64,000 bases of DNA from positions 4,765 to 68,764 of the forward strand of contig JAJDCD010000004.1 of the NCBI GenBank assembly GCA_029261035.1. Direction: 5' to 3'. This stretch comes from Candidatus Omnitrophota bacterium (lineage in GTDB: Bacteria > Omnitrophota > Omnitrophia > Omnitrophales > JACROU01). The notes beneath the pieces were generated by a model, which had not been told where the DNA came from, did not search any database, and worked only from the letters and a program-made list of their open reading frames with translations. The position numbers were made by a program, and so were the translations under genes. Shown here piece by piece: positions 4,031-56,100 of this stretch; position 1 is the first letter of the stretch; every line of letters starts with the position of its first letter.

Positions 4031-4100
4031 CTCAATTCCAATGAACGTTTCACATTGGGAATCCCCTTATTTCCCTTACACTACAATTAAACACAATCCT

Positions 4101-5198
4101 CTAACTTCTCACAACCTTAAAAATCAAAAAAGACCCAATAGAGCCCAAAACTATATTGGGCAACCATAAAGCTATCGCAGGAGGTACTACGCCTCCAATA
4201 GCAAGCGTATCTGTCCAAACGAAAAAGACGTAATAGATACAAATCAACCCCAAGGCAATGCTAAAACTAATTATAGGCTCACCTCTTCGAGTTATAATCG
4301 CCAGAGGGAGGCCTAAAAGAATAAAAATAATGGGTGCCATGGATATAGAAATCTTTTTGTAAAGCTCTGACTCTATCTTAAGCCTTCCCTTTTCTTCTTT
4401 AACGTTAGGTAGCTTCAACATCAATTCATCCAAACTCATATCTTTTTCCTTTTTATTCACCTTCCCATTTTGAGGTTGGTTATTGCCGGTAAAAAGAGGG
4501 GGTAACTCAAATGTTTCAAAATCTAATTTATAAAAAACATTGGGATCATCTGGGTTTCCTTCATCAATTGTTCCATCGTAAAGCTTTAAGCTCAACATTC
4601 TTTCTTCCGGTGAAGAAAGAATCTCTCCTCTGTCTGCAAGTATCGTTCTAATTGGCTTATCCCCTTCAGATTGATAAATGGTAATTCCCTTTAGATTCTC
4701 ACCATCAATTTCCTGAATTAAAATCACATAACCTTTAAATTCTTTAATAAATCTCCCCGCTTCCAAATAAGCAAGTGGTTTGTTTAAAAACATATTTTTT
4801 ACTTGCTCTCTATATTCATGCCTTGTTTTTGAAATGAGATGATCATTAATAAACAAAGACACAAAACTAAGCAGAACCCCAACAAGAAGGGTCGGTATCA
4901 TAACTCGAAAAATATTAATCCCACAGGCCTTCATCGCAATAACTTCGTTGGATTGCGCAAAACCACCATACACAAGCAGAACAGCCGTTAAGGCGCTCAT
5001 AGGCAAAGTAAAGCTAAGTAGTTTAGGCATTAACAGTAACAATAGTTTTGCAACATCAAAAATATTAACACCCTTATTTAATAAAAGGTCCGCTAACCTC
5101 ACCAAATTCCCCACCAAAAACATAAAGGTAAACACCCCTAAGGAAATCAAAAAAGGCAATATAAGCTGCTGCAATGTATATTTTCTTAAAATTTTCAT
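4101..5198 (-). CDS. LptF/LptG-family LPS export permease (YjgP/YjgQ)
   Basis: ~365 aa polytopic membrane protein; N-terminus MKILRKYTLQQLILPFLISLGVFTF and overall pattern typical of the LptF/LptG family; start chosen at the MKILRKY Met (ORF opens at 5261). Confidence 0.65.
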   Translation of the reverse strand: MKILRKYTLQQLILPFLISLGVFTFMFLVGNLVRLADLLLNKGVNIFDVAKLLLLLMPKLLSFTLPMSALTAVLLVYGGFAQSNEVIAMKACGINIFRVMIPTLLVGVLLSFVSLFINDHLISKTRHEYREQVKNMFLNKPLAYLEAGRFIKEFKGYVILIQEIDGENLKGITIYQSEGDKPIRTILADRGEILSSPEERMLSLKLYDGTIDEGNPDDPNVFYKLDFETFELPPLFTGNNQPQNGKVNKKEKDMSLDELMLKLPNVKEEKGRLKIESELYKKISISMAPIIFILLGLPLAIITRRGEPIISFSIALGLICIYYVFFVWTDTLAIGGVVPPAIALWLPNIVLGSIGSFLIFKVVRS

Positions 5199-19477: not shown

Positions 19478-21210
<1,733 letters not shown>

Positions 21211-21215
21211 AATCA

Positions 21216-21503
21216 CTATTCAAAAACTGCTAAGATTTCATTTTCTTTTAAAATTTTATGCTTTGTTCCTTCAATAACGATTTCATCTCCGGAATATTTT
21301 CCAAAAATAACTTTATCACCTGCTTTAACTTCAAGAGGTTGAAAGCTTCCGCTTTCCAAAGATTTTCCAGGACCTACAGCAACAACTTTACCTTCCGTCT
21401 TTTCTTCTTTAGCTGTATCTGGAAGAATAATTCCACCTTTGGTTTTTTCTTCAGCTTTTAAAACTTCAACTAATACTTTATCGCCTAATGGTTTTACTTT
21501 CAT
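21216..21503 (-). CDS. groES: co-chaperonin GroES
   Basis: [44 protein letters not shown] canonical Cpn10; start at MKVKPL. Confidence 0.9.
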   Translation of the reverse strand: [95 protein letters not shown]

Positions 21504-21535
21504 TTTTCTTTCTCCTTTGTCTATCTGAGTTATAA

Positions 21536-21632
21536 GTTGGTCCGTGACAGTCACTGAAGTGACAGTCACCACGAAACTAATCTTTGTTATCAAATTTAAA
21601 AGTGACTGTCACCTTGGTGACTGTCACTTTTA
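21536..21632. repeat. GTGACAGTCAC x2 - spacer - GTGACTGTCAC x2 palindrome array between groEL and groES
   Basis: gtgacagtcac at 21545 and 21560; gtgactgtcac at 21603 and 21618; two halves are reverse complements, so it can form a long hairpin. Confidence 0.75.
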
Positions 21633-21666
21633 AGTACCTAAAAGCCAAAAAGATGCTTAGCACTTT

Positions 21667-23343
<1,677 letters not shown>

Positions 23344-23641: not shown

Positions 23642-26600
23642 CTACGCTGCTTGAGCCGTTCTGATATACCCTTGGAATTCGGTCCAGAGAGATTGCATCA
23701 ATTGGACGAATTGATCATTGAAGGTAAATACATTGTTCGCTGCACCCCTTTTAAGGGCAATTTTGATATCTGCTGCCAACTTGTCATAACCTCCTGCTAC
23801 AGCTAGTTTTGCAGCAACAGAACCAGCAAATAACTGATAGGTTGTCCACTGAGAATCTGACAATCGACTTCGGTCTACCGAAATTAACTGAGTTCCATTC
23901 AGAAATGCCGCATCTTCCAAATTACTTTTCTCAGCTAATACCACAAGATGTTTTCCGATATTTTGAGAAGAAACTTCAAGGTCAATGGATGATTTTAATG
24001 CATCCACCAATCGAGATAACTTCAAAGACTTTCCAGAAACATCTTTAAACTCACTGTTTTGTGTAATTAGTTTAATCGTACTCTTAACAGAATCATCAAC
24101 AACATGAACCAAAACAAGTCTTTGTCCAAGAGCCTGCTTATCTTTATCGGAAAACTTTAACTGATTAAGAGCATCACCAAAAGCCTCGACATTAGCTTCA
24201 GGAGAATCTAAAACCACGACTGCAATATTACCCTCATTCGAAAGCAAACTTGTTACAACTTCTTGAGGAGATGTCACCGAAGCCTGTCTTACGGTTACAC
24301 CCAACTGAGGTTGTGAGGTTCCAAAAAGAGAAGCAAAAAGACTGTCTTTATTATCCCCCAGATAACCTTCCAAACCTCTAAGCGCTTTTATAACTTCATT
24401 CTCTAAACCAAAAATCTGTTTATACATATACTCAAATTGCTTATCACTCAACTCAGGTCGTATCAGTTTACCAGCTGCATGCGTTGTTGCTTCAACAACC
24501 CCCTCCAATGTTAACCCATATGGATATTCAACAACAGCACCCAGTTTATTATTTAAAATACTAAGAATACTTTCTTCAACCCCCAAACTCTCTGCGGAAA
24601 TAACAGACTCATCTTTTTCATCAACTGGCTTAGTTCCTTCTAATAAATACCAAGGTGTTCTCGCAACTTTTTCAATAAATTCAATCAGTTCACTACGACT
24701 CATTGTTTTAGGTAAATTAAAAGAAATTAACTTATCCCCCATAACAACAGATGGTTCAAAATTTTCCCCCATTAATGGTTTAAAAGCTCCTCTGCTTAAT
24801 GTATCCACAATTCTTAACCCCAGTTTATTTGAAGTTGGAGCTATAAGAAATACAGAGCTTACGATGTCTTTCCCCTTACCATCAGAGGAATAACCAACAA
24901 AAAAATGAAGCCCTTGTTCTTTAGCAGCACCATTAACATCAGATCCAAACAATTTAAAAAAATCAGGAAATAAACCGTCCTCATAATAAGACAGCCCATA
25001 AGAATACAAATCAGTATCAAATAGATTCACTTTCTCAACGGAAACAACGCCCAAACTAGACGCTTCAACAAACTTCGTCTTAGCCAATTCTTCTGCTGGG
25101 ATTACAAAAGGAATTCCTTTTTTAGCAGCAGCTGTAGCTGCGATACGAATTGGACGTTCGGTTTGATACTGAATATCTTCATCAGAAATTATGCGGCCAT
25201 TTACGTTCTCTACTTCTTGTGTCATCATTTCACTCGTTACCTCAGCAACATCTTGAATAGAAAGAAAGGATATTCTTCGCTCTGTCTGTAAAATTTCGCT
25301 TAATTCCATTAAATTCGATATCGATTGAATATCCAGCCCAAGCTTAACATCGCTCAGACCAGCTTCATCCAGTAATTCAATAACTTTATCAATGTCTGAA
25401 TAGATTCGAACTAATTTTAATGCTATAGAAAATTCGACGTCTGAAAACTCCTCAGACAATTGTTTAATAATGCTAAGTTGAATTTTAAAAAATTCAAGAT
25501 CTCTATTTAAACTTTTAACAATACCCTTAACACCAAAATCAGGATTCGCTTCAAAAGGCTCATAACGCAAACCACCAATCAAACCTCTCATCCCGCCTGT
25601 TTTAAGTGTGTTTCCTTCCTCATCTTCTCCCACTTCTGTGCTGGTAGGCGCATCATCTGTCCCAATAACCAAAGATAAATTTCTTGATCTAGCATCGGTA
25701 AAAGCCTTATGTAGTGCTGATCTCATTACATTTTTATAATGCAGCATCCCTTCTTCAAGGCTAAGCCCTAACGAAGTTAAAACTCCACCTGCACTTGCAG
25801 TAAGAACAAGCTTTTCAACGTCATCCATCGCATCGTCACGTTTAACAACTAGAGCTTGTTTTTTTACTGTCATCTCAGCTAAAGTCCTTTTCTCTTCATT
25901 AATCTGCTCTTCTATTTGATCAACAGACTCACTGCGAGATACTGCTTCTTTTCTTTTTATTAATGTTGATAACTCTTCTCTTAATACGTTAATCCTTCTA
26001 TCAAGTGAATCAATTTCAATGACTAATGTATCTAATTCCTCATCTAAGGTCTCTCTAGATTTCTCTACATTCAACTTATCTTGAGATAAATCTCTAAGTA
26101 ACCATGGATGCACTTTCATATCATTTAAAAGAATATCTCCTATGTCCATTCTTAGAGAAGCATCAACTGTAGGTTGAGCCTCTGAGTCAATATTAAAAGT
26201 AAAACCAGCCGCATCTTCAAATAACGCATACTTTTCTTGTGTTGAAGCACCACCTAAATCACTTATATTCTCAGCCGCTAAATTCTTAGCCACTTTTTCA
26301 AATGCCTCAATCACTACCGAAACTGAAGAATAACCTAATGCCGCCAAACCTTTTCCATATTCTTCCTGCCCTGGAACAGAAGGATCATTACCACAGTAGC
26401 CACACTTCACTATACTTGAAAGAATCAAATATGCTTTATCTCGATCACCTTCTTTTAAAGCTGCCTTCGCCTCTTTAATTGCACTTTCATTAAAAATCTT
26501 TGCTTGCCCCGTCACCATCGCATTCCAACGAATAACTGCAGGACCATAAGCGGTTGCATTATTTTTTAACGAAGGATCTCCTGTGTTACGATCAATTCGG

Positions 26601-29600
26601 TAAATCGTTTGCAATGCATCATTACCACCCGTTGAAGTAAAAAAGCGAATCGGAATTCCTGCATCTCTAAAAGACTGCACTACTGCTAAAAAGTCATTAA
26701 TATTAATAGCGTTAGTTGGGATCTCGGTCATCATTCCAATCTGAACCAAATTCGCTAATTCCACATTGGATATCCCTAAATTTTCACCTACCTTAAGAAA
26801 ACGTTCGATCATTTGTTTTAAATCTGAAGGACGACGCACAATAGGAGCAAAGATACCGATTTTGTGCCTCTTGAGCATCGCAACACGAATCATTGCTTCA
26901 AGTTGCCATTCCATCGTTGGCGAATCTAAAAGAAGCTCTAAACCACGATACCCTTTCATCGCATTCAGTTCTTCTTTTACAAATAATTCGGATCCCTTAA
27001 CAGCTTTGTATTCATCCGATTTTCTATCATCCAATCGAATTTTTAAATGCTTGTCTAAAAGACCTATAATTTCTTCAATTAATACCCTGACATTTGGATC
27101 ATCTTGTGCTTCTTTTAAAATTTTCAACGATGTTAATAGAGGATCCGAGCTGTGCCCTAACCCTACTTCATACATCTGTTCTACAATGTCTTTAACTGCC
27201 AATCTTAACTGTTTATCTTGAATCTGCTGATAGCGATAAGCGACCTCAACAAAATCAGGATTTAAAGGTTCAGCAGTAGCCAGAATACCCTGGGTAATAA
27301 TCGATTGATAAAAATGTTGCCCCGAGTTATATCCGGCAATCTGTTCTTCAATAAACTGAATTAGTTTTACATTTTCTTTGCGGTTTAAAATATATTTAGA
27401 AGCCACACCTTCCTCTAGCTCTCCCTTTTCTTGGGCCACCATATTGTCATAAGCAAGTAATGCATCCGTATAAATACCAATATTTGCTAAATCAATCTCA
27501 AGTCGTTTCAACCCAACACCTTCATAACTAGGAATATTACGGGTCGCATAACTAGCCAAAGATTTTTCAGGAGAAGCCACAATAGATGCCGACCGAGTTG
27601 AACCATAAGGCGTATTTGGAATATCTCGAACAGAAAAGTCATTCCCTGCAATCTTAACTTTATGATCATAACCCAACAAAATCTTACCGCGCTCAGCATC
27701 AACGGTGATTTGCATACCCTCTTTCAACACAGTCATCAACTGATCCGAAGTTCCTGTAACCGCCACTAAACCATACTCAGAAGCAACAATCATCGTATGA
27801 GAATTTTGCCCTCCAAGGATCGCAATAACACCTTTAGCCTCTAGCATCGCACGATTCATATCGGGATCGGACTGAAAAGTCGCTAAAATTTTACCCTTAG
27901 CTTTAGCTAGCTCTGCAGGGTCTGTTTTATCCAACACCCAAGCAACTTCACCTTGAGCCGTTCCACCCGTTTTCGCAATAAAAGTAAAATCAAGAACATT
28001 ACCTTCTAATTCAGCTTTTTTAAAAGCCTGATCTGTGACAACCACTCTTTTTAATTTAATTACATCCGGGTCTTGTAAACTAATAACTGTTTCGGGACGC
28101 GCTTGAGTACTAACCACATTCCAATCATATCGATCAAACCCCCGCTCGTCTTTTAAAATTTCTCCGTCTTCTCCAACTAATTTAATTGAAGTTCCTTTAG
28201 ATTCTTCTTTGGGTCTAAAAGCCCCTTCTAAGTCAACATAACCTTGTCCATAAAAACGGTCAATTTCACTTAAGAGTTCGGCATACTGTCCTAATAGTCT
28301 TTGATCTGTAACAGAGAACTCTCTTTTTTCTTCTTCTGTCAGAGGAAGCTCTACTTTCCCCATTCGATCTTCTGTTTCTACAATCTTATACCTTCTTTCT
28401 CCTTTTTGTCTGATGATCACAGCCTGTCCGTCAAGAGATAAGATAAACTTACTTCCACTTTCGTCTCCAGACACAATTTTTTCTCCCTGACCTTCATGAA
28501 TATTTGAAGAAATGGATGGGTAACCCGTTTGTTTATCCGCAGTCATAGCAACAAAGGATAGCTTACTTAAAAACATTCTTTGAAACAATGTACTAATTTC
28601 AACAGAATCATCAAAAGTAGGCAATCCTTCTAAGAATCGATAATCAATCGCTCGATTATTAAAAAGAGATGCTTGGTTAAAAACCCACTCGGTAATGAAA
28701 TTATCAACACCGGTCTCATCCATCCTCACAACACCATTCGCATTTACTTTTTGAACCCACTCTGGAGATGTTGCTGTCACAAAAATAGATGTGTCTTGCA
28801 TTCCTGCAAAAGAAGCCTCTTCTGAATCTTCCCCTACAGCAGAAGATCGAATTGCTAGAACGAGCTTGTCTAAAGAAATTTTTAAGCGCTCAGCAAGAAT
28901 CATAAGATTTTTCTTAATTTCTTCTTCTACTTTGGGAGGAACGACAAGGTTACGAGCAGTGTAAAGAAATTTATTTGAATTTCTTTGTGTTAAGTCATGG
29001 CGTTGCTCCGAATACTCTTTTGCTTCTTCTTCCAAACGTTGAATCGTTTTCTGTGACGCTTCAATCTCAGACTGCTTTCTCGCAATTTTTAGATTATTGC
29101 CGACTATCTTAATGCTATTAACCAGAATAACCGACTCTATAAACGCTTGGTTGAACACAAAAGTATTTGTAGCTTCATCATGGTCCACCAATTCGTCTTC
29201 CGTTTCACCCCATTTAATTTGGAATAATTGCTTATCTGTGCGATTTTTAAAAAAGTCTCTAATATTTTCATACAAGGTATTATCATCTCGATAAGCCCTT
29301 AACAAATCAATAGCAAGAGGAACAACGGTTTGAACATCTTCCAAAAATAGTTCAGGACGATGATTAATATAATTTAGTATCTCTATATCTTTCTTCAACT
29401 CCGAAATCCGACTTTTAACAATAGAAACTTCGGTTTCATTACTTTTTATCTTTTCTTTAATCTCGACAACACGTTGATCTAGAGACTTTCCTAGAAAAGC
29501 AAAGTAATCCGTAATCCCATCAATCTTATGTCCCTTAGCAGGATAATAATCTTGAATATCTAAAATGACTTCCGATAGAACCCCAATCACTTCTTGAATC

Positions 29601-32600
29601 ATCTTAGATAAAGGCTGTTTTTTCTTCTTGTCATCTAATTTTCTAAAAGTAACCCTCAACGCCTGAAGCTCTTCTCTTAAAATAATAGCTTCTTCATCCC
29701 CATTTTCAACCTTATCCAAAAATTGTTCTACAGAAAGACGTGTAAATTTCTTATATTTTTTCAATAAGTTTTGAAGCTGTGTAATATTTTGAATCAAGCT
29801 ATCAGAAATCACATCTGTCGTATTGTGCTCTAATAATTGCTTAAAACCTTGAGAGCCTGTAGCAAAATTTGCCAAAGTCACTGCTCTAGGGGTATACATC
29901 AATTCCCCTGTATGTGCCGTCTTACCACCAAAATTCACCTCATCTTGACGCTCAACTTCAACGTCCCATACAATAATGCGATCTTTAAATGCAGGATCAG
30001 CAACATATTCTGTTTTAAAACTATAACGCGCTGTCGTTGTCGTCTTATCTTCTATATCTTGAAGGCTTACTTCTGTCGTATCCGCTAATTTTTTCCTCAA
30101 GTCTTCCACATCTTCTTTTGTAATCACTTCTCTACGATCTATTTTATCTTCGTGTTGATTATGAAATGCATCAAGCAACACTTCTAACTCTTCAACATTA
30201 AAATCCCTCGTTGCATAAAACCCGTATTCATTTCGAAGCATTTGGTATAAACGAGGAGCATCTAAAATACGTCCTCGATGCATAAAATCAGAGATAATCA
30301 ATAAAATATCATTTTGATTTAAGAAATACCTATCCGAGACTTCTTTTGTATCATTCAACTTCACATTTTCTTTAATATCAAATATTTCTTTTGTATCTCT
30401 AAGTCGTGTTGAATGTTGACGTGTCAAACTCTGTTGCCCGCCTATTAATAAAATCCCTAAAACTTTTCTTTCCCCAGCACCCAACTCTTCACCTTGCTCA
30501 ATATGCCCAGCAATCATTGCTAACCATGACATAGCTATTTTCTTACGCCCTGTTTCTAACAAAAAGTCTACAAACTGCTGGTTTAATAATAAGGTTTTAG
30601 TTTCAAAATCAAAGTCATAGTACATATCTTCAGTTTTTCCTACAGCAACTGTAACTCCTTCTAAAACATCCCCGTATTTCCTAATATCTTTATATTCTTC
30701 TTTACTACCCCCATAAAGTCTAAAAAAGTTTACAGCTAAAGGTATCAGTTTTTGATGCTTATCAAATGCTACTCGCCCTTCTCGAATATCTTCAAAAGAT
30801 AGAACTTGCATATCTTTCGATGGTTCAGAAATAACCATAGCTGCTTTATATCTAAATTCTTTTGCTATTTCTTCTTCTGTTTTATGTCCATCTCTCAATT
30901 GTTCTGCCCACCAACTTAAATCTCCAGTAGTCATAACTCCCGATTGACCTACAACTCGATAACCCGTTTCTGCAGCCAAAGTTCGTATGGTTAACCTAAA
31001 CTGAAATTCCTTTATTAACTCATCTTCTGTTAATGCTTGAGTAGCCCACCATGCCAAATCACCATCCGATGCATGAGCAGAAAAAGGGTTTTCTGTAATT
31101 AAATCATATTCATCTGCAAGCGCTCGTATGGTTTCAAGATCTGTAACCTTTTCTCCCAAACTGCTAGCCCTACGTTCATAATTCTGCCCATTCCAATATA
31201 ATTTTATTTCTCTTGTTCTTTTATCCGCTTGTTTTGTAAATTCAAATTTCAAAACAACATCTCCAGCTTCTTTTTCTAACGTTAAGATGATAGACTCTAT
31301 ATATATTCCCGTCCCAATAGATGTATTAGTTCCTATCACTCCTCCTCCAGGCGCTGGAAATATGTCTTTTAATTTTCCATGCAACATATTTACTAACAAG
31401 CTTACATCCCCTATAATTACCGGAACTTCCCCTTTTTCTAGACTCGCTAAACCCTCTCTTACTTTATTAATTACTTCTTCCTTTTCTCCCAAACTGGATC
31501 CTACTTGCTTCTTAGCATCTATCGCTTGTTGAGCACGATGTGCAGCATACGCTTTAGCAAACTCAGTAATCTCTTCTTGATTAAAAAGAAATCGATACTG
31601 TTTTCTCTCAATCCATTGATAAATGTTAAATGCTTCATTTGGAATAAAACCATCTTTAGGTCTAAACCATCGTGAAAAACTAAATTTATGATTTTTAATT
31701 CTTCTTTTTTGATCTTCAAGAGAAGCCTTCACATCAAGATATTGAACATTCTTAATGTCAACTTCTACAAAATGATTGTCTCTCAATAATTGAGGAGTCA
31801 TCAGAGTAATATACCCAATTCCATGTCGGACTGGATCATACATATCTAACGCAACCAATTCATTTATAACTTTGCTCGATTTTGCTTCGAGAAATGTTTG
31901 AGCTTGTAATAATCGATCCGCTTGAGGATCCCTAATACGAGCTGAGGTCACAGCTTGAGTCCCATCATAAGCAGCTGCAAGAATACGAACCAATTTTTCT
32001 AAATAAGGGCTGTCTTTCAAACGTTCCACTAAGCTTTCCGGAGCTCCCGGTATAGAAGAAAGACTAATCTCAGCTTTTCGCTTTTCAGCTTGTATTTGAA
32101 TTAACTGATTAATTAAATCTTTTTCATCAAGTCCCCTACTAGCAAGTTCTTCAAAATCAGATTCTTTAAGAGGTTCAGAAAATAAATTTTTATCCGTTAA
32201 ATAAAATCGTTCCGCTAAATACTGTACTGTTTTGGGGTTTTCAATTACCCCAAGGCTTGAAGCTTCCGAAGACGCATCTTCACCTTCCAAAGCGGCTAAA
32301 AGACTTTGCCGTTCACCTGGCTCTTCAGTAAAAATCTCGATATAACCTTTAATTTCAGCCCATTCTGTACTTGTAAATAAAAGTCTATTTGTTTCCAAAG
32401 ATGGTAAAGCATCCATCTCCACCTTTTCACCTATACGAAACAAAGGAACACCTCCAACTGCACCGGAGTAAGCAACAGCTCCATCTACTTCCATTGGTTC
32501 TTTAGGGGATAATAATGCTATTGGGTAGTCCTCTTTAGCAATACCTGCTTCTTCATAAACTGGAAGTTTTTTTATTTCTGATTTAAATTCTTTTTCTTTA

Positions 32601-35600
32601 CCTGAAAGATATTTCAAAATCAAAGCAACTTGATCTGTTAAACCATTATTTGTATCACCAAACTTTTCTACTTTATTTTCTAAATAAATTAAAGCCAATC
32701 TAAGAACAACCTCAAGCAAAATAGGTTTGTTTTTCAACCGTTTATTGAAAGCACTTAATCCTGTTATACCGGTAAGCCCTCCGGTTAATTCTAAAATACC
32801 TAAGCTAGAAGCTTCCGTTTTATATTTTTCAGGATTATCTTTAATATCAAAAGCCAAAGAAAGAACGGTTTGATCCTCTGTTGAAATAAGTACTCGATAA
32901 CCTTGCTGTTGAAATCGATCCAGAGTTCCTTGCGCCCCGCCTTTCCATTCATATTGAGCAGAAGCACGGTTTAAAACATCCGCATAAATGGAAGCACTTC
33001 CATTCTGACTCACATAAACAAGCTGAAGGTCACCTTCTCCATTAGTTTTAGGGTGAATCAAGAATAGGCCACCTTTTCCCAACACAGATTTAAGTGCAGA
33101 AGGGTCAAATAGAGGTAATGATTCTATTTCAGATTTTAAAGCTTCTTTCTTTTCTATAACTACTGTTCTAAGAGCTTCTAAATAACCCTTAATTTTATCT
33201 GAGTCAGCAATGTTATGATTATTTACAGTATAAGGACCACTCATATACGCTAACTGAGTTATAACTTCAGACAAAACAGGCTTTTCAACAAGTCTTCCTT
33301 TTAAATTTTGCAACGTTTGAATCGCTGAACTTCCACGGCGACGAACTAAGTAAGAATCTGTATCATCCGGTATAGACAAATCTAAATATGGGATAAAGAG
33401 TGCCTTTTTTTCTTGCTTTCCAGCTTCTTCAATTTGTTTATTTCTTGAAAATATTTCCCCAAACCCCTCTAACAACAGATTGATATTTGCTCGAGAATCA
33501 TCCAGACGAATAAATAACCCAGCGCCACCTTGATCTTTTCTAAGCTCTGCCAAAGCCTTATAGGAAGCCTCAGCAAATGCATCTCGAACTAAATGCGAAG
33601 GTAATCCATGAAGATAAGACTTTGCAAAACCAATGGCTGGATTTGCTTCTAATGGCTGTTTAGGAACAAAAGAAATAATAATAGGAAAATACTTCTGAGG
33701 CTGAGACAATACTTGTTGATAACTAATATGTTGATCTCCTGTACCCTGCATCACCCATTCCATTCCCATGTTAATTAAAGCATCCCTTAAAGAATAAAAA
33801 CGATCTCCTTCTAAATAAATAAAAGGAATTATTTTCCTTCCGTCTTTCTCTGTAAAAATTTTAGCTTGCGATAACAAAAGAGATAAGGCGGTATCATCAA
33901 AAATTCGCTGAACTCTTCGCTCGTATCCAGGAACACCCCCTAAAAGCTCTCTTATCACTGCTTTTTTAGAAACCTCATCATATCGTCTCTTCACAGCACC
34001 CGGATTCCCTCTCTCTTCTTCTTGCAAAGCTTCTAACTCTGTCTTCAAGATTCCTTTTCCTAATTCCACAAAAGGTTGTCTTAAATATAAATTTTCTTGC
34101 AAAATTCTAGTGATCGGATTATCTAAGTCGCTCACATCTACAAAATTGGGATCCAATCCCTGAGAACGAATATCCCGAGCTATTAATCGAGTTCCTGCGG
34201 TATAAGTCATCCCATAGAACGTCGTAAACCATTCCCCTAATTTTTCAGCCGTATATTGACGTATTAAACGTAATTTTCTTTCTGGAACTAGTGAAGATTG
34301 ATTCACCGCCTGAAGTAATGAGTGATTTTCAAAAGGTTCTGAAGGAATTTGAAACACATTATAATCTGCGCTCGAAACTTCAAAATTACCTAAAGTAACT
34401 ACCAATCTCTTATCATCTTGAAAATAATTCTTCTTCTGGGCACCCCAGTCACTTTGTCTCACTGCAACCAAGTTTGCAAATCCAGCCTGCCAAATACTTT
34501 CATTAAAATTTTGTTCGATTGCTTTCCCAAACCAAAAAGCTTCATCTGGGACAACAAGAGCTATATCTTTATACCCACCATCCAAAACATGATGTGCCAA
34601 ACGATTTCCAATGTGAGTTCCGCCTCTAACCTTTTCAATACCTGCTTTTCTAACTTCCCAATAACGCTTCGAATCCAAATCATAGTAAGAGAGAAATGTC
34701 ATCATATGGAGGTCTGCTGTCCAACGGCCACCTACATTATTAAACATAGCTCCAAAACCAGGTGCATTTTCACCCAACTCCTCTTTCAATCCAGAATTCC
34801 GAATAAATGCCGATAGACGACTTTTTTCAGGGGTATCTACGGTCTCAAAAAACATATTTCCCAGAACTGTTCCTAACACATCTTTGATGTTTTCTTGAGA
34901 GATCTCCAAACCTTTATCTTTTGCTTTCAAAGCTAATAACTCCACAAAACTACTTGTTAAAAACCAATCTTTATTAATTGTAAATAATTTTTTTTGCTCC
35001 ACACCTTCTTTGTTTACATTAATTTCATTAAGTGTATTAAAAACTAAGTTAGAAAAAGAAACACCATCCAACGCTTTCTTCTCAGCCACCTTTTTTAACA
35101 ACACTTTAAAAATAGACTCAAACACCATCATCGTTTCATCCGTAGAACCTGATTTAGAACTAGGAATCAAAGCAACCTCCTCCCAATCCGCACCTAACTG
35201 AGCCAATTGACTTTCGATAGAAACTTCAAAGTTTTTTCCTAATTCGTATTCACCAACAATAATGGATTCTTTTTCAGAAGGATCTTTAAGCTGTCCAAAC
35301 ATCGTGGCTATACCTTCAAACGGCGTATGTTGTCCACCAATGCCTGTTTTTATAATTAAACGAATTTTCTTATCTGGATCAACAGCACTCAGTTTCTTAT
35401 TTCTATTAGCAAAAAATTCTCGCATCATCTTAACTACACCGAGGAAAATTTCTTTTCCACCATTCACATAGTATCCTTCATTCCCCTCGTCACCCATTGC
35501 GTGGGACCCATCATTCACAGCACCTTCTGGCACACCATAGCCCTCTTGTTCATAGCCGCCCTGTGTGAAACGTTTCTTCAGGCCAGAATCTCCTCCTGCG

Positions 35601-44100: not shown

Positions 44101-45807
44101 TACGCCTGAAGAAATAACAGGAAAAACAGAATCCCCTACCGTATTAAAAGTATTATGAACACCCAACGCGATACTTTCTAAATGAAATTGAAGCAATGAT
44201 GTTGGGTCATCTAAATAAGTTCCAGCACTCACTCTTGCACGGTCTACTGTATCCCGAGCCAAAGGTTTTAGAGAGTCAAACTTTTGTTTGGTCATTAATT
44301 CTCTGTACTGATTAGGATTAAACTGAGAAACATTTGGAGAAACAATCACATAAGACCAATCACTAGCTCTAAGTAAAGAGCTAATTCCTTCACTATGAAA
44401 ACCTCCAGCAACCAAAGCCATTTGCTTGATTTGTTTATCAGAAGTATGCTGTTTTAGATTACTAACAAAAGATTCATCACGAGAACGAGCCAATAAATAA
44501 AATTCCATAACATCATTTAGCAAAAGATTCATTTTGAATTCTTGATCTTCATTCAATTGCACCAATCCTTCAAACAATGAAATTAATGTAGTTTCTTTTA
44601 AAACGCGTGAAAGCTCTTCTAAATCTTTTCGAGTTAGCTCTAACTTAAAAGCATTTTCAATCAACTGAATCATTTCAGACTGAACAAAAACCTTCTTTGC
44701 TTTTTCAGCAATAAGTAACTTTTGATAAATATGATTTTCAATAGAATCAAGCTCTTCAAATAACTGTGTCCCCACCAACTCTTCTTTCAAGATCAAAGAA
44801 GAAGAAAACTGAGTTAACTGTGGATAAGACTTCCAATCGATGGAAAGACCTTCTGTAGCAAGGTACAACTTATCAAAATAATGACGTGCTCCTAAAGGAA
44901 ACTGAGATTCACCTAAATTATTGAGAATAAATTCTTTCTCAGGAGAGTCTAGCAACTTTTCTGACAATACAACTTTCAATGCTTCTACTTCTGCTTTTAA
45001 CTTCTTCATATTCACATTCTTACCAGAGTCTTGAAGTTTCAAAATACGCACTAAATGAGGAAAGCGTGCTTGAGCATCAGATTTACTTAGATCCATACTC
45101 AACATTCTTTTAGTCAGCTTAGAAACCGTGTTGATATAAGCAATCGTTTGATCTGAAGTATTAAATGCTGCCTCTTTTTGTTTTTCTAACTCTCTTAACT
45201 TTACATCATAATAGGTTTTTTTTAATTCTTTGATTCTTGCTTTAACAGGCTCTAATAGGGGAAGGTAAAGAGCTGCTTTTTTACTAATATCTCTATAAGC
45301 TTTAATGTTCTTTTGATATAACTTCCTGTCATCCACACCAACAACATTGGTTTGACCCTGAGTCTGATAAGCAAACCATTCTGTTCCAGACAACTCACCT
45401 TTATCTACTAGCTGCTGCAACACTTGTTTATTAATTTCAGGCAAAGGAAGAAAGTTTAAATTAATAGGATCAATCGGTGTATCTGCTGCCTCAACACCCA
45501 CATGATTGATTTTATGTTGATCAAGAAGATGATTTAAAATCGAAGAGATGTTCTTTTGCGCACTTGGATTTGTATGTGCGTCCTGAATAAATACTAGAGT
45601 AGGTTTTGCTTGATCCCCTACATGAACGTCTTCAATCACCCCGAATTTTTCTGGAATCGATATATCTAAAATTTTTGATTGCTGGTTTGCAACTTGCTGT
45701 AGCACATTCACAGATGGATTTGCATAAACGGAATTTGATAATGTAAATACGGCGATGAGCGCCCAAACTATAGACTTGAACTCCACAGATGTTTTACCTA
45801 ATGACAT
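38107..45807 (-). CDS. giant secreted multidomain protein 2 (2566 aa), paralog of giant 1: signal peptide, shared N-domain, embedded complete GAPDH-like domain, shared C-domain
   Basis: 7.7-kb ORF. Signal peptide SIVWALIAVFTLSNSVYA. GAPDH hallmarks: YYGITGGRGRIGKGILRLL (NAD-binding GxGRIGR), ISCASCTTNG (catalytic Cys motif), ITEHGYTLSQ (His, cf. VHAYT), SSIFDPSGTSVTV...WYDNEMGYTHRVIDV (C-terminal GAPDH signature). N-terminal LVFIQDAH...NHVGVEAAD...GGFHSEG and C-terminal LFATSKPQLGVTVRQSS...NNVFTFSDQFMQLM are homologous to giant 1. Confidence 0.8.
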   Translation of the reverse strand: MSLGKTSVEFKSIVWALIAVFTLSNSVYANPSVNVLQQVANQQSKILDISIPEKFGVIEDVHVGDQAKPTLVFIQDAHTNPSAQKNISSILNHLLDQHKINHVGVEAADTPIDPINLNFLPLPEINKQVLQQLVDKGELSGTEWFAYQTQGQTNVVGVDDRKLYQKNIKAYRDISKKAALYLPLLEPVKARIKELKKTYYDVKLRELEKQKEAAFNTSDQTIAYINTVSKLTKRMLSMDLSKSDAQARFPHLVRILKLQDSGKNVNMKKLKAEVEALKVVLSEKLLDSPEKEFILNNLGESQFPLGARHYFDKLYLATEGLSIDWKSYPQLTQFSSSLILKEELVGTQLFEELDSIENHIYQKLLIAEKAKKVFVQSEMIQLIENAFKLELTRKDLEELSRVLKETTLISLFEGLVQLNEDQEFKMNLLLNDVMEFYLLARSRDESFVSNLKQHTSDKQIKQMALVAGGFHSEGISSLLRASDWSYVIVSPNVSQFNPNQYRELMTKQKFDSLKPLARDTVDRARVSAGTYLDDPTSLLQFHLESIALGVHNTFNTVGDSVFPVISSGVNSRLKLNANLAAFDRIELEAARSHSSRVSESVFRVSGNGASRLVSIILETSPVTGEANVLYSGVASANSLGVAVAREQVLDQPIQLAINVGAPDYYQDLSQIQLVTQLSEPQVEEFRSVASNFPKNTNVNPYTLYNRDLISMLWALIGDPNISLNEIFGVANPQSLFNLVVSNTVFGRLPGKLLLIEEEGVFYLSINDKRIKLNPELPHNDNVDGYDTLIDMSDSRNSGESEENLLKRLEDLRSKSSLSSVISYNPLSDLKTKRPIIYGQNSEVLLREDEVHFVPSLGTQVAGNVLALLQRSDLNEDISAYTGLSVKTPAELMDRELQTLRAGMGTALSLEFPEWAGYNKTNDGELVQASLNSMNFAAPFKGASIVDFTIQLKADSELLKLNPEERKKKIIAALQAGLKRTGSENFVRLQKEGEPLESLMLSDHRELAIIGIEDMIVGGEGQVLIPVWSNELGRVQTFMNMLVNDRSNYPIETTSQDNVPSNSIPVVDSSDTKYMPAQLPEGERIYYGITGGRGRIGKGILRLLYKDPNYYPAFLNGVSDVIALVQQMQADIVHKAYPWVAEAVKEGPGKDFLVLKDKQTDEVVYKIPIFNIRLARSGNKEDAAAKFIRDMVTMLRGLKGPNEEAINIEVLFDAVGEDDGFNRPLHHSLAIAGVQRIIKTYPAKKDGIKNIVFGINHVEDIREEIERAHMAKEEYQRIIPTSAYGAIPEEVPLVVETISCASCTTNGVGPGLSRLNGYLLDEGFPSMFDAVFITEHGYTLSQSSLGSASRVPKKGPSLVNDPTMLGAISTTGASKAYVKADPLFKGKFEGASRRLANPDGSAVWTSLRIGINNINDVPTVEQVNAQAYSWANSDALRGIFGYDEIQNTSQLHNRSESSIFDPSGTSVTVSPDKDYVVIQIKEWYDNEMGYTHRVIDVEKYAALLSRGLIEDDTDYGPSVVSAVKLPGQPYLHTYNGDAEAIIKDQVVGKETIIASPNVTYIPLINLLKKQPPAFFTSEQKKYLKRMVDEFLVPVLQRARDLKQGFPSLYHKGRSFKSLQVTGIKDVMSFTSTEGHQYFMLPQYIADEGFLNINIPFSFVEKVVTTDDHHAYYQLILMGIFQEVMGLSYPEALVAAKHYNKEATQGVSDLPDMTRAMLDLMREQAKSDDEARDYLNGAMKDNVGFVFGETVRNSLVKRRAAPEYMNTIRNELTVMAHLINGYIAGPVVNGKGIPATPQELVSVLNADNLVSQNEIPTEVLSKASLSRDLVAAASMVPVVQRFRGVSLQKPLDDHLLTGLLDSTTTDQIKGLLGSRDLSVLPIATGGSVKDQSKLDPGHMIGSGKDDIARIIVNPLDKKRALLRSGEVDEPGAISSFIVFDEPEDSVNAPRAFPMLYGNAFFGSFKKGVSSEMKQRILEQLAENPIDPDADPIETIKFWAGVNGVVYNPTSNQPGQLSNVTVHVLDSVGDRQHETARINALEEFKQESGIEIDKIQHGTLEPALEAVWGNSDDRIHIFLSTSGIAEILTAMTLAGRESSYGSFRVMSRAGLENAQSIEPQFAYNFSRQESSKIGSFQRELAGEILPKRSKSPSTPKKIFDTIHNFNGNFEATLVPVTANPALNLPGIREINNREFVVPLVRIVRTSQTELHRWVEYFNVKVDSREGYSWTPIAAPQSEAGVEANSLGGAKINRVQQILLGEQSILDALASGDVSNLPGDYFLTPEQMIAAGNAFASSVYAEDSADALLAELNRVSENDVDSTDVLIRYLKDNPAGLLSSLFATSKPQLGVTVRQSSITSASEVVTGALANEGSLTVLVLDQLNQDLSRFTSEVAALDLPEEEKQSISDRIVFVEPREFSVEGIQDAIESILTSKFTDILGRKVTLTKLVNNLSQTLNVSAPSKGLNQHLVVLAEKELLPDADRLKGKQLISVERKALSDVQWDSYKLFAGALAGKLAVVGGFDKLPTDVRGALKKVRGNNVFTFSDQFMQLMSGLWNEFQGYQRIRESA

Positions 45808-52884: not shown

Positions 52885-53199
52885 TTATTTAGATTTTCTG
52901 AAATATGTAACTACGTCAAGGATGAATCCAAGAAAAAAACCGCTAATGCTATAAATCAAAATTGTAACTATACAGCTAACCCAAAAAAACATGCGTGGGG
53001 AAAGAAACTCATAAAAGCCCATCAACTTTGACAATTCAAACCCCAAAGACCAATGCACATATGTAAATGGAAAAGCAAAAATTAGATACGGTGCTGCAGA
53101 ATGAGGACTATAGACAGAAATCAATTGATGTATAATGAAAAAAAACAAAACAAACAGTGTAAAAACAATAGTCGATAAAAATGAAAGTTTGAACTTCAC
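52885..53199 (-). CDS. small polytopic membrane protein directly downstream of giant 3 (candidate immunity/accessory protein)
   Basis: 104 aa, ~3 TM helices; GTG start overlaps the giant-3 stop codon (translational coupling geometry); hydrophobic aromatic-rich composition. Confidence 0.4.
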   Translation of the reverse strand: MKFKLSFLSTIVFTLFVLFFFIIHQLISVYSPHSAAPYLIFAFPFTYVHWSLGFELSKLMGFYEFLSPRMFFWVSCIVTILIYSISGFFLGFILDVVTYFRKSK

Positions 53200-56100
53200 T
53201 AAGCATCCCCTCCAGCAAAACGAACCTCAATCTGATGACCAATAATGTTATTAACTGAATTATTAGGATAGTCATCAATATGGAAAAATAAAGCGTTATC
53301 AAGTATGTTATGAAAATGAGGGCCTGTCCCAATTCTTACTTGGCTAACTTGACTACTAAATTCTTTTAAACCATTCATTAAATATCCTGTTTCTTGTACA
53401 TCAAGAGCAATGCCCTCAATTGATCTCATCACAATATCCTGTCCATTTAAATCAGTAAATGGTCGATGGTCCCCTCCTAACATAAGGCTATTCCTGTCAC
53501 GACTATTTGTAATGCCTTCTTTATGTATCATATGCTCTAAAAGTCCACTTGTGTTTCCTGAATACAAATAAAATTTGCTATTCGGATATTTTTCTAGCAC
53601 TCTGACAAACTCTTCACGATTTCTAGGGGTATTAATTATACTCCAATTGTCTTCACCAACAGTATCTCTAATTTGATTTTGCATTTCTACATTACTAACA
53701 TCTAAGTACTGTTCTACAGTATAAATTTCTGGGTGCATTTCTGGAGAAGAAACATCAAAATTTTCTAATTCCAAAACATTAAACATTACTTCTTCTGGTG
53801 TCCAAAAATCATGTTTTTTTCTGCCAACAATGGAATCATAAGCACTTTCATCTAATTGATTATAAATTACTGGTAGCATTTGATTAAAAACAGGCTCTAC
53901 TACTCCAATTACACCAGGTGAATTTAAAATTTGCGTCGATACTCCATGATTCAAAGCATTGAGTATAGTTGTAATGTTTTCTACTGTAGTCCCTGACCAG
54001 TTTCCTGACTCAATTTCTAATCCAATAGTTTTATCTAATAAATAAATCTTCCCATCTTTTATTTCACTACCCCCGCCAACCCCAACAACGCCTGAGTTTA
54101 AAGGTTCTATGGTGAGAAAATTATATCCTTGGTCACCTTGAACTTGAATCTGAGACAGTTCATTATTTTGGTAACTATAGTTTAGAGTTGTTCCCTCTGA
54201 AATTTGTTCAGCAAAAGCAACATTGCCTATTGAAAAAAGTCCTGTTGATGTTCTTTTGACGTTTTCATAAATTTCTGTGGAAATTTTACCCTTAATGTTT
54301 TTGGTAATAGTTATGTTATTACTTCCTAACACACTCTCAACATTAATGGTATCTCCCGAATTATTTGAATATATTGTCGTTACAAAACCATTTTGATCCG
54401 TCAAACTTCCTATTTTCTGCCAGCCGGATGCTCCAGTGAAGGAGTTAGCTTCATGCAACACTTCTTGAGTTTCTCGACTAAAAAGCCCTCCGAAAAATTC
54501 TACTGTTTTATCAAACCCCTTTTGAAGGACTTCTACTCCAAAAGAAATAGCATTTTGTGCTCCGTTTATTACTTTTGAAGCTAATGTTTGTGCTGTGTTG
54601 GTTATTCTTTGAAATAAACTACTTCCTAATTGATTTGCATCCGTTTGATCCGCATTTGGAATAGACGCATTATTTACTAGGAGTTGTCCTAGCAATCCTG
54701 AAACAAGTCCACCTACTTCTAAAGGCGCTCCTGCTCTGTTAAGGCCGATGTTGGCTCCTACTGAAACGAGCCCTGCAGCTGTTTGGGTATTAAATAGAGC
54801 ATCTTTAATACTGCTAAATAATCCTGCACTAGGATTTGCAATGCCTTGAATACCTCCGCTGATGGTTACTCGTATCGGTATGGAGAGTAATGATGTCAGT
54901 TCTGAACTAGCACCTAAAGCATCCAATCCTGTGATGGCTATGTCACCAAGAATATTCTTAGCGGTTCCACTTTGTAAGAAATCAAGACTACCGCTGAGAT
55001 CAAACCCACCGAGTCCAAAACCTGAAAACAAACTAGCTCCACTCGAAATTAAACTAATGGCTGTTGGGTTCAGGTCGGTATGTCTAGAAAGAATCCCATT
55101 AACCCCGTTCCCTACTAAAGCTAGACTTGCTCCTGCTGAAAAGGGTGCAGCAACAATACCACCGACGATTTTAATACTGTCAAAGACCGTTCGAAATACT
55201 TTTGTGTTTAATACATTATCATATAGTGTATCGGCAACTTTCTTGGCACCTCTTATAACTTTATGTCCTATTTTACCAAGAAATGGGATTACCTTACCAA
55301 TACCACTGGCTATTTTATCTAATCCATTAAAGAAGTTGTCTTTAAAAATGCCAACAGCTGAGATTAAATCCAAGCTGGCTATAGAGCTTATAAGATTGAC
55401 TGTGCTATTAAATGCCTGCTTAAAACTACCTGTCGAAATTAAACTAAAAGCAAAATTAGCCAATGCTGATATGGCTCCAAATACGAGACCCGCAAGAACA
55501 ATGGCTGTGATTCCGAAAAAAGCGCCTCTTATTTGAGTTTGTTCAATTTCTGTCAGCTCACGAATTTCATTGTTTTGATTTTCTGATGGTGGTGCTCGAG
55601 TGCTTAAAACAACTCCTTCCCAATCCGTTAAAAACTCATCTTTGGTCAATGTGACTATTTCCAAATTATCTTCTGGGCCGTGACCTGGGTTTCTATAAAC
55701 GATACCCTCTTCCGTTACTTGAGTGAGTTCGATGTAATGATTTCCATCAATATGTGCAATAACACTCATTTCACAATCAGGACCTTGTTCTGAACAAGCT
55801 TCTTGATACATAGCTCTCAGAGATTCATAATTAAGATTTAAGGCATGTACACCCTCACCTCTATCCTCTCCCTCTGAAGAGGGAGAGGAAGATAAAACTC
55901 TTTCCGCATAGCGTTTCATGGAGAAAAGGCTGATAACTAAATCACCTTCTTCTAATGGCGTTAGTATTCCTTTTAAGATGTCCATCACGATTAAATCCCT
56001 AGCTAAGGTAACTCGATCTGGAGATTGCCACGCACCATTGTCATTGCTCGCAATGACAGAATCTTCCAATAAAGCTTCTAAAGCAAGAAAGGCAGATTGT

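Follow-up and report, generated by a model that had tools for sequence, protein, structure and literature searches.

The giant ORF G1 and its PpsA-like unit

The window analysed here, a stretch of 64,000 nucleotides (nt) from contig JAJDCD010000004.1 of a Candidatus Omnitrophota bacterium, has a GC content of ~37%, and its long open reading frames (ORFs) all lie on the minus strand. Three of them are giant: G1 (4,711 amino acids, aa), G2 (2,566 aa) and G3 (53199-63977, 3,592 aa). The subject of this work is G1, a modular protein bearing a unit related to phosphoenolpyruvate (PEP) synthase (PpsA; pyruvate, water dikinase, EC 2.7.9.2). The coordinates of the features of G1 and G2 are collected in Table 1. 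Omnitrophota are widespread, ultra-small, uncultured and probably predatory or host-dependent bacteria; giant genes, for which no function is known, fill a large part of their reduced genomes.

Table 1. Features of G1 and G2 in the window (positions of the window in nt; residues in aa).
Feature	Position	Strand	Evidence
Giant ORF G1, 4,711 aa, modular, bearing the PpsA-like cassette	23642..37777	minus	ORF listing, uninterrupted frame
Signal-peptide-like N-terminus, aa 1-35 (...RGMALCVVVLFTTTTLAWS/AP)	37673..37777	minus	hydropathy scan
Conserved N-terminal domain, aa ~60-545, with ~300-aa helical insert; predicted TIKI/erythromycin-esterase/ChaN/TraB-type hydrolase	36143..37600	minus	
Weak glucose-6-phosphate-isomerase-like (SIS) module, aa ~770-1400	33578..35470	minus	sub-threshold PGI matches, motifs
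ASSLG-bounded block, aa 2204-4243: upstream domain, PpsA-like enzyme, coiled coil, degenerate barrel	25049..31168	minus	BLAST, HMM, motif scan
Conserved ~300-aa domain, aa 2311-2606	29960..30847	minus	BLAST to 10 relatives
GGK segment, start of the ATP-grasp domain, aa 2607-2654 (EVERQDEVNFGGKTAHTGEL...NFATGSQGFKQLL; K2619 at nt 29921-29923)	29816..29959	minus	HMM, alignment, model
Helical, coiled-coil-like insertion of ~300 aa inside the ATP-grasp domain, aa 2655-2960	28898..29815	minus	model helices, Pfam
ATP-grasp core, aa 2961-3236, with AIRSSAVGEDSEEASFAG, DLEG and TQARPET	28070..28897	minus	Pfam, phmmer, alignment
Swivelling phospho-histidine domain, aa 3270-3365; H3327 at nt 27797-27799	27683..27970	minus	Pfam, phmmer, alignment
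PEP/pyruvate-binding TIM barrel, aa 3415-3840; helical insert aa 3437-3574	26258..27535	minus	Pfam, alignment, model
Degenerate partial second PEP-binding barrel, aa ~4056-4205	25163..25612	minus	barrel-specific HMM
ASSLG-type sites (one GSSLG, one AESLG)	35666-35680, 32798-32812, 32249-32263, 31487-31501, 31154-31168, 25049-25063, 24581-24595	minus	motif scan
C-terminal domain of G1, aa 4396-4711	23645..24592	minus	common to G2 and both giants of the syntenic genome
Giant ORF G2, 2,566 aa; N- and C-terminal domains as in G1	38107..45807	minus	
GAPDH-like module of G2, aa ~1085-1500	41308-42555	minus	NCBIfam, motifs
C-terminal domain copy in G2	38110-39057	minus	48% identity to the G1 copy

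Pfam searches with the whole G1 protein recovered three families, all above their gathering scores: PPDK_N (PF01326, ATP-grasp; aa 2912-3188, E 6e-30, 105 bits versus a gathering score of 27), PEP-utilizers (PF00391, mobile His; aa 3294-3364, E 7.8e-13, 48 bits versus 23.1) and PEP-utilizers_C (PF02896, barrel; aa 3575-3834, E 1.9e-19, 70 bits versus 22.8). Their order is that of the PpsA/pyruvate phosphate dikinase (PPDK) superfamily, and the excised region gave the same three families. In a phmmer search of the PDB, PEP synthases came out on top (2OLS, E 2.6e-33; 9DAE, 3.6e-32; 8A8E, 2.2e-26) and PPDKs reached only ~1e-5; the GGQNSHTMIV segment of G1 aligned opposite the His segment of 2OLS.

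G1, ten embedded relatives and 25 canonical PpsA sequences of ~800 aa were aligned with MAFFT (36 sequences in total; alignment A2). H3327, in GGQNSHT, corresponds to the canonical catalytic His and was invariant in all 36 sequences. The PEP/pyruvate site of G1 was complete (R3425, R3581 plus R3611, E3685, N3719/D3720 and C3795), and the barrel motifs that hold these residues were kept as GVGLKR3425LE, IR3581LDDRKSDEY, NAMKGYR3611G, MTE3685IP, GGN3719D3720ALQ and GYC3795GNDPS. At the nucleotide site, G2617-G2618-K2619, RSS (aa 2977-2979), DLEG and TQARPET were all found, the ATP-grasp motifs RSS/GED/ASFAG and DLE...TQARPET being retained when compared with the relatives and canonical PpsA. Of the two Cys in KCGYCGNDPS, the catalytic one is C3795 (nt 26393-26395), the second, which aligned with the Cys of the canonical ICGQxPSD. 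Across the embedded clade, whose members share 30-64% identity, the catalytic His and Cys and the positions of the PEP, Mg and ATP ligands were invariant. From canonical PpsA to every embedded relative, ~40 positions did not vary, each known catalytic or ligand residue among them.

The start of the ATP-grasp domain was displaced. The Pfam PPDK_N match in G1 begins only at profile position 43, and aa 2560-2958 alone had no match in the PDB by phmmer. A hidden Markov model (HMM) of the N-terminal ~60 residues of canonical PpsA sequences (VGGKxASLGEM...VPxGFAxT) matched G1 at aa 2607-2654, and it was only with this purpose-built model that the GGK segment surfaced. The same HMM matched nine of the ten relatives at the equivalent site, which precedes their main ATP-grasp match by 150-300 aa; in the tenth, P0129, the match fell under the inclusion threshold. 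G-G-K2619 formed invariant columns in alignment A2, and in four relatives with shorter inserts the Pfam PPDK_N match begins at profile position 2-4 and crosses the insert without a break. The recovery of this segment upstream means that the enzyme spans aa 2607-3840 (nt 26258-29959). The insertion that separates the segment from the ATP-grasp core gave only sub-threshold Pfam matches, all of coiled-coil type.

Modelled by AlphaFold on the basis of alignment A2, aa 2601-3800 reached a pLDDT of 87.6 and a pTM of 0.81, with the GGK segment at pLDDT 84-92. Between this segment and the RSS strand, the model has long helices of 52 and 66 residues (model residues 155-206 and 277-342). When the model was compared with known structures via Foldseek, PEP synthase 2OLS was the best match (E 1.9e-27, TM 0.63 on the target), followed by PPDKs (1KBL second-best, E 1e-20) and rifampin phosphotransferase.

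The sequence-only reading had placed a complete unit with retained catalytic His and Cys at 26290-29200, inside a 4,711-aa protein. Most of this description held: the three domains are present in order, no substitution was found at the catalytic or ligand positions after multiple alignment, the peptides quoted all occur in G1, the codon of H3327 lies exactly where it had been put, the G1 frame is uninterrupted and the predicted structure of the module resembles PEP synthase. Two details needed correction. The enzyme does lie at the coordinates given, but these leave out the GGK segment with which the ATP-grasp domain starts, and of the two Cys in the motif named as catalytic, the first (C3792) is not conserved among the relatives. 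We regard it as very likely, judging from the sequence comparisons, that G1 holds a complete PpsA-type unit with its catalytic residues retained.

By the chemistry of the family, the ATP-grasp domain (GGK, RSS, E/Q Mg ligands) would phosphorylate His3327 on the mobile domain. This domain, carrying phospho-His3327, would swing over to the TIM barrel, where R3425, R3581, E3685, N3719/D3720 and the acid/base Cys3795 would interconvert pyruvate and PEP. The conservation described above supports the earlier proposal of a functional phosphotransfer enzyme, and we infer that the module is catalytically active.

Family placement and the conserved cassette

Among the NCBIfam models, PEP synthase was the best family (NF005057, 241 bits versus a cut-off of 598; TIGR01418, 215 bits versus 739.75), and the PPDK equivalog TIGR01828 was not reached (49 bits versus 843.45). 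PPDK proper, rifampin phosphotransferase and Enzyme I were rejected as the closest family on the phmmer, NCBIfam and Foldseek results; as judged by sequence, the closest family of the module is PEP synthase, not PPDK. With PEP synthase it has in common the three domains, their order and the motifs GGK, RSS, QxRPET, GGxxSH, GxGLxRxE, NPMxGxRG, MxEiP, GxND and CGxxPS. It differs in the ~300-aa coiled-coil insert in the ATP-grasp domain, the helical insert in the barrel, the Asn two residues before the catalytic His (H-2) and the low identity to canonical ~800-aa PpsA (~30%), as well as in sitting within a ~2,000-aa cassette of a 4,711-aa protein with a signal-peptide-like N-terminus. PPDK (EC 2.7.9.1) has the same domain organisation and swivelling-His mechanism but is much more distant in sequence; the acceptor of the G1 module could be phosphate, as in PPDK, or water, as in PpsA.

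When 1.84 billion representatives were searched exhaustively with HMMER, 29 matches at E ≤1e-30 were obtained. Eight cluster representatives were 45-64% identical to the G1 module, seven of them proteins of 1,995-6,752 aa and one a 218-aa fragment, and three more relatives (~2,100-2,200 aa long) showed 35-37% identity. A neighbour-joining tree united the embedded modules in a single clade on a long branch. The GTDB species representatives contributed six more species with the module (47-59% identity), labelled either as Omnitrophota or as metagenome-assembled genomes (MAGs) with doubtful bin labels. In two of the three GTDB loci listed, the module lay within complete ORFs of 4,977 and 2,517 aa; in the third, no complete ORF covered the match. 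According to these comparisons, the module is part of a separate clade embedded only in proteins of ≥2,000 aa, the organism-labelled members of which come from Omnitrophota MAGs.

The clade has signatures of its own around the active site, with SHTMIV replacing SHAAIV, GGND replacing GSND, and Asn or Gln replacing Thr at H-2. The last position is Asn3325 in G1, Asn or Gln in the whole embedded clade and Thr in 24 of the 25 aligned canonical sequences; this Thr of canonical PEP synthase is the target of the DUF299 PSRP/PDRP regulators.

The ~2,000-aa cassette, bracketed in G1 by ASSLG motifs at aa 2204 and aa 4239, was kept as one unit in all ten relatives. Its upstream ~300-aa domain stops exactly at the start of the GGK segment in each of them, and an 8-sequence profile of this domain found no match in the PDB. 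In the ten relatives, the enzyme is followed first by a coiled coil and then by a further conserved stretch, which a barrel-specific HMM identified as a partial second copy of the PEP-binding barrel. This second match in G1 (aa 4059-4165, 32.6 bits) recurs at the same relative position in 10/10 relatives, and its catalytic positions are altered (R to K; TEIP to DIQS).

These features bear on two alternatives to an active PEP-synthase-type enzyme. One is that the module is an inactive relic, or a purely structural part of a scaffold- or adhesin-type giant protein. Decayed domains often pile up in giant proteins, the second barrel of the very same cassette is degenerate and another enzyme-like module of G1, described below, is very divergent. 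Yet the pattern of local decay seen in the second barrel is unlike the main unit, in which the ~40 invariant positions include every known catalytic and ligand residue in spite of an overall identity of 30-64%. We hold this alternative to be highly improbable.

The other alternative is a change of substrate. The superfamily has repurposed members (Enzyme I, rifampin phosphotransferase, PigC/RedH), and the G1 module could have kept the His-swivel chemistry while PEP or ATP serves to phosphorylate another target, such as a protein, a sugar or a small molecule. The divergence of the clade on its long branch, the scores under the equivalog cut-offs and the clade-specific changes beside the His (SHTMIV for SHAAIV; Thr to Asn at H-2) would agree with such a role, and so would the constant company of the upstream domain and the degenerate second barrel, which could bind another substrate. 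Nevertheless, no residue of the PEP/pyruvate site varies across the clade, the enolpyruvate-protonating Cys included; the rifampin phosphotransferase and PigC types lack the PEP barrel, and Enzyme I lacks the ATP-grasp domain that is intact in G1. Repurposing seems improbable to us on these grounds.

The carrier protein and its genomic setting

At the N-terminus of G1, a basic n-region is followed by a hydrophobic core and AWS/AP, and the hydropathy scan detected no hydrophobic segment other than the N-terminal one in either G1 or G2. The same layout, with basic residues ahead of a hydrophobic core and an AxA-like site after it, was present at the N-termini of 92 out of 109 family members, which makes the proposal of the sequence-only reading that the protein is exported a plausible one.

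The first ~550 aa of G1 and G2 recur in 119 further proteins, which are 2,600-7,900 aa long and mostly carry an Omnitrophota label. The candidate active site of this N-terminal domain consists of D88-x-H90, E118 and H505, each conserved in 98-100% of the 121 family sequences. It matches the 2His/2Glu motif (E-x-H ... E ... H) described for Bcr135 and RRSP, in which the H-to-E spacing is 28 (PMC6254334): H90 and E118 are 28 residues apart, with Asp (D88) at the first acidic position, where the reference motif has Glu. The domain probably adopts the TIKI/Ere/ChaN/TraB-type hydrolase fold, an assignment held at this level because Foldseek gave no significant match between the N-domain model and known structures. 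A stand-alone N-domain protein of 539 aa was also found in a profile search with alignment A1.

At the other end, G1, G2 and the two giants of the syntenic genome have in common a C-terminal domain of ~240-300 aa with no Pfam match and no significant PDB match in a profile search, which could be anchoring or secretion-related. The cargo between the shared ends varies. In G2, it includes a GAPDH-like module that scored 95 bits with TIGR01534, under the cut-off of 367, and has the GxGRIGK Rossmann motif, SCASC1302TTN, TEH and WYDNEMGY, so that the catalytic Cys and His motifs are intact. Other family members carry enzymes of central carbon and sugar-phosphate metabolism (TIM, PGK, GAPDH, hexokinase, FBPase, PGM, transaldolase, PEPCK, Glu dehydrogenase) as well as kinases, methyltransferases, radical SAM and receiver domains.

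The further enzyme-like module of G1 weakly resembles glucose-6-phosphate isomerase (PGI). Its scores were all under threshold (Pfam PGI, E 0.013; NCBIfam PGI, E 1.3e-4); in the PDB, a profile search matched a PGI alone (E 0.039) and phmmer found no match. The motifs GIGGQ, SKSGSTDET, GGRWT and GDQHISYQQ were recognised, and P0003, a protein of 7,944 aa, has the PGI-like block in common with G1 at 47% identity.

The pattern [AGS][SE]SLG occurred seven times in G1 versus 0.08 matches expected from shuffles. Four of the seven sites aligned with ASSLG in P0002, the syntenic ortholog of G1 from a 2.17-Mb JGI contig, in surroundings that were only 31-48% identical, and several related giants contain the motif as well (P0121 seven times). 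Judging by its positions and recurrence, ASSLG is a marker of the module junctions in G1, and it may serve as a linker or as a site of processing.

Besides the embedded relatives, the PpsA-like proteins P0134, P0137, P0142, P0147, P0148, P0150, P0155 and P0173 formed a separate clade of 1.4-2 kaa, with signal-peptide-like N-termini and without the TIKI/Ere-like domain. Such starts in a separate clade suggest that predicted export signals may be more widespread among PpsA-like enzymes.

The 2.17-Mb contig has the gene order BPL, PanK, giant, giant, groEL, groES, groEL, IMPDH, guaA, dnaE, which, groES left aside, is that of the window. Between these two syntenic genomes, GroEL, IMPDH, GuaA and DnaE were 79-86% identical. 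G1 and P0002 shared 56% identity in the PpsA-like module, 41% in the N-terminal domain and 31-48% in the other parts; P0002 carries a TIM domain at the position of the PGI-like block, and the counterpart of G2 matched at its ends only, the GAPDH module being absent. A divergence of the module and of the giants so much greater than that of the housekeeping proteins, together with the swapped cargo, fits accessory, fast-diversifying proteins better than core metabolism. We infer from these comparisons that the PpsA-like module is accessory cargo, not a part of core metabolism.

Housekeeping genes surround G1: rpsB, tsf, pyrH, frr, lptF/G, rpoD, dnaG, dnaE, guaA, two groEL, alr, tsaB/E, thiL and a gene for a GuaB3-type IMPDH. 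With rpsB, tsf, pyrH, frr, rpoD, dnaG, dnaE, guaA and groEL packed into the window, a phage or plasmid origin was rejected. The IMPDH-like protein was 73-84% identical to members of more than 100 database clusters, and its named matches were Candidatus Omnitrophica/Omnitrophota, bar one generic 'bacterium'; the window is accordingly chromosomal DNA from an uncultured member of the Omnitrophota. An assembly or frameshift artefact was likewise rejected, given the uninterrupted frame, an identical protein in NCBI on a 222-kb contig, the syntenic ortholog and the six other species with the module. An antisense ORF of 151 aa (26766-27221, plus strand) is almost certainly no gene, as it lies wholly within the conserved barrel-coding region of G1.

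Proposed export, probable accessory cargo and the rival readings

The reading that we prefer, with a probability of roughly 0.6, is that G1 is an exported modular giant protein which carries an active PEP-synthase-type dikinase as accessory cargo. The enzyme would then act outside the cytoplasm of the producer, in the periplasm, at the surface or in a host or prey cell, and G1 is possibly cleaved at the ASSLG junctions after export. The PpsA-like cassette would be one of several interchangeable enzyme modules of a fast-evolving Omnitrophota giant protein.

Several points weigh against this reading. The equivalog cut-offs for PEP synthase proper were missed by the G1 module, and with scores so far below them, neither the substrate nor the direction of the reaction is assured; the module also has large insertions and an Asn in place of the regulatory Thr at H-2. 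No obvious supply of ATP or PEP exists in the periplasm or outside the cell, which argues against export or calls for delivery into another cell. Some family members contain typically cytoplasmic domains (radical SAM, response-regulator receiver, sigma-70 region 2, HTH), and the relative P0124 begins with a response-regulator receiver domain and has no signal peptide.

The points concerning localisation lead to the main rival, a membrane-tethered cytoplasmic scaffold. The N-terminal segment would be only an anchor, and the PpsA-, PGI- and GAPDH-like modules would serve the cell's own glycolysis/gluconeogenesis at the inner face of the membrane. It would place the modules where ATP, NAD and phosphorylated intermediates, present only in a cytoplasm, are at hand, and would account for the cytoplasm-type domains in many family members; in the searched passages of their preprint on Omnitrophota giants, West-Roberts et al. 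2023 (bioRxiv 10.1101/2023.11.21.568195) also caution that extracellular predictions may be wrong. However, the N-termini are patterned as cleavable Sec signals, with basic residues, core and an AxA-like site, which would place the remaining chain outside, and neither G1 nor G2 has a second hydrophobic segment to return it. Identity of 56% for the module against 79-86% for the housekeeping proteins, and cargo swapped or missing between orthologs, would also be unusual for core metabolism. We consider the scaffold rather unlikely, although no other rival deserves as much weight.

A bolder form of the export reading treats G1 and G2 as secreted polyproteins, cut at ASSLG by their own TIKI/RRSP-like hydrolase or by a partner protease, so that PpsA-, GAPDH- and PGI-like enzymes would be freed outside the producer. 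They could convert the metabolite pool of a host or prey for an ultra-small predator or symbiont, e.g., by turning PEP + AMP + Pi into ATP + pyruvate, or by draining ATP. It would amount to a MARTX-like delivery with metabolism as cargo instead of toxins. In MARTX proteins, such as the one with the RRSP effector of Vibrio vulnificus (PMC6254334), the cargo consists of toxins, whereas that of G1 consists of enzymes of central-metabolism type; MARTX use type I secretion, and the N-terminus of G1 is Sec-like. Pfam searches of G1 and G2 gave no matches to RTX repeats, a cysteine protease domain or a type I secretion signal. The polyprotein scheme appears unlikely to us.

The presence of such domains in giant Omnitrophota proteins has precedents. 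According to the searched passages of the preprint of West-Roberts et al. 2023, the 'Archaeovorins' of Omnitrophota frequently have PPDK domains, along with TIM, GPI, FBPase, PGM and aldolase domains, and are predicted, with stated doubt, to be extracellular; that giant proteins of this phylum can contain a PPDK-like domain is, on that report, already known. A second preprint, as far as its searched passages go, distinguishes a 'multi-enzyme metabolic cluster' class among Omnitrophota proteins of at least 10,000 aa and leaves its function open (bioRxiv 10.64898/2026.06.07.730766). The giants of these two preprints resemble G1 in phylum and in the content of PPDK_N and glycolytic-type domains, but they are at least 10,000-30,000 aa long and have many transmembrane helices and SecA-like domains, whereas G1 has 4,711 aa and a single N-terminal hydrophobic segment. 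An Archaeovorin, as defined, exceeds 30,000 aa and has many transmembrane regions as well as a SecA DEAD-like domain of divergent sequence; G1 falls outside this definition and had no SecA Pfam match.

The passages of the two preprints that were searched do not describe residue-level completeness, a separate embedded clade, a split ATP-grasp domain or a cassette with a degenerate barrel. Nor do these passages mention a signal plus TIKI/Ere-like N-module of a 2.6-8-kaa family, ASSLG junctions or the contrast in divergence with the housekeeping genes.

With all its catalytic residues intact, the ~1,200-aa module or the ~2,000-aa cassette is a tractable object that could tell whether the metabolic domains of such giants are real enzymes. 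The signal-peptide-like N-terminus, the TIKI/Ere-like N-domain, the ASSLG junctions and the cargo swapping offer handles on the build, export and possible processing of giant proteins. If the export reading is true, an ATP/PEP-dependent enzyme active outside the cytoplasm of its producer would be unusual and would bear on the exploitation of other cells. If G1 is cytoplasmic, it would represent a membrane-tethered, fused central metabolism and would affect genome-based reconstructions of metabolism in which such domains are treated as normal genes of glycolysis.

Two minor observations concern the neighbours of G1. Immediately downstream of the giant genes come the two groEL paralogs (19478-23337, minus strand); in the syntenic genome, groES stands between the two groEL (L001 23415-27154), at the place that corresponds to the gap 21149-21666 of the window, and the groEL arrangement is kept in both genomes. 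The third giant ORF of the window, G3, on the minus strand, lies outside the G1/G2 family. Its RHS repeats, sub-threshold TcdB_toxin_midN match and three hydrophobic segments at aa ~2821-2955 were noted, and its features suggest an Rhs/Tc-type polymorphic toxin.

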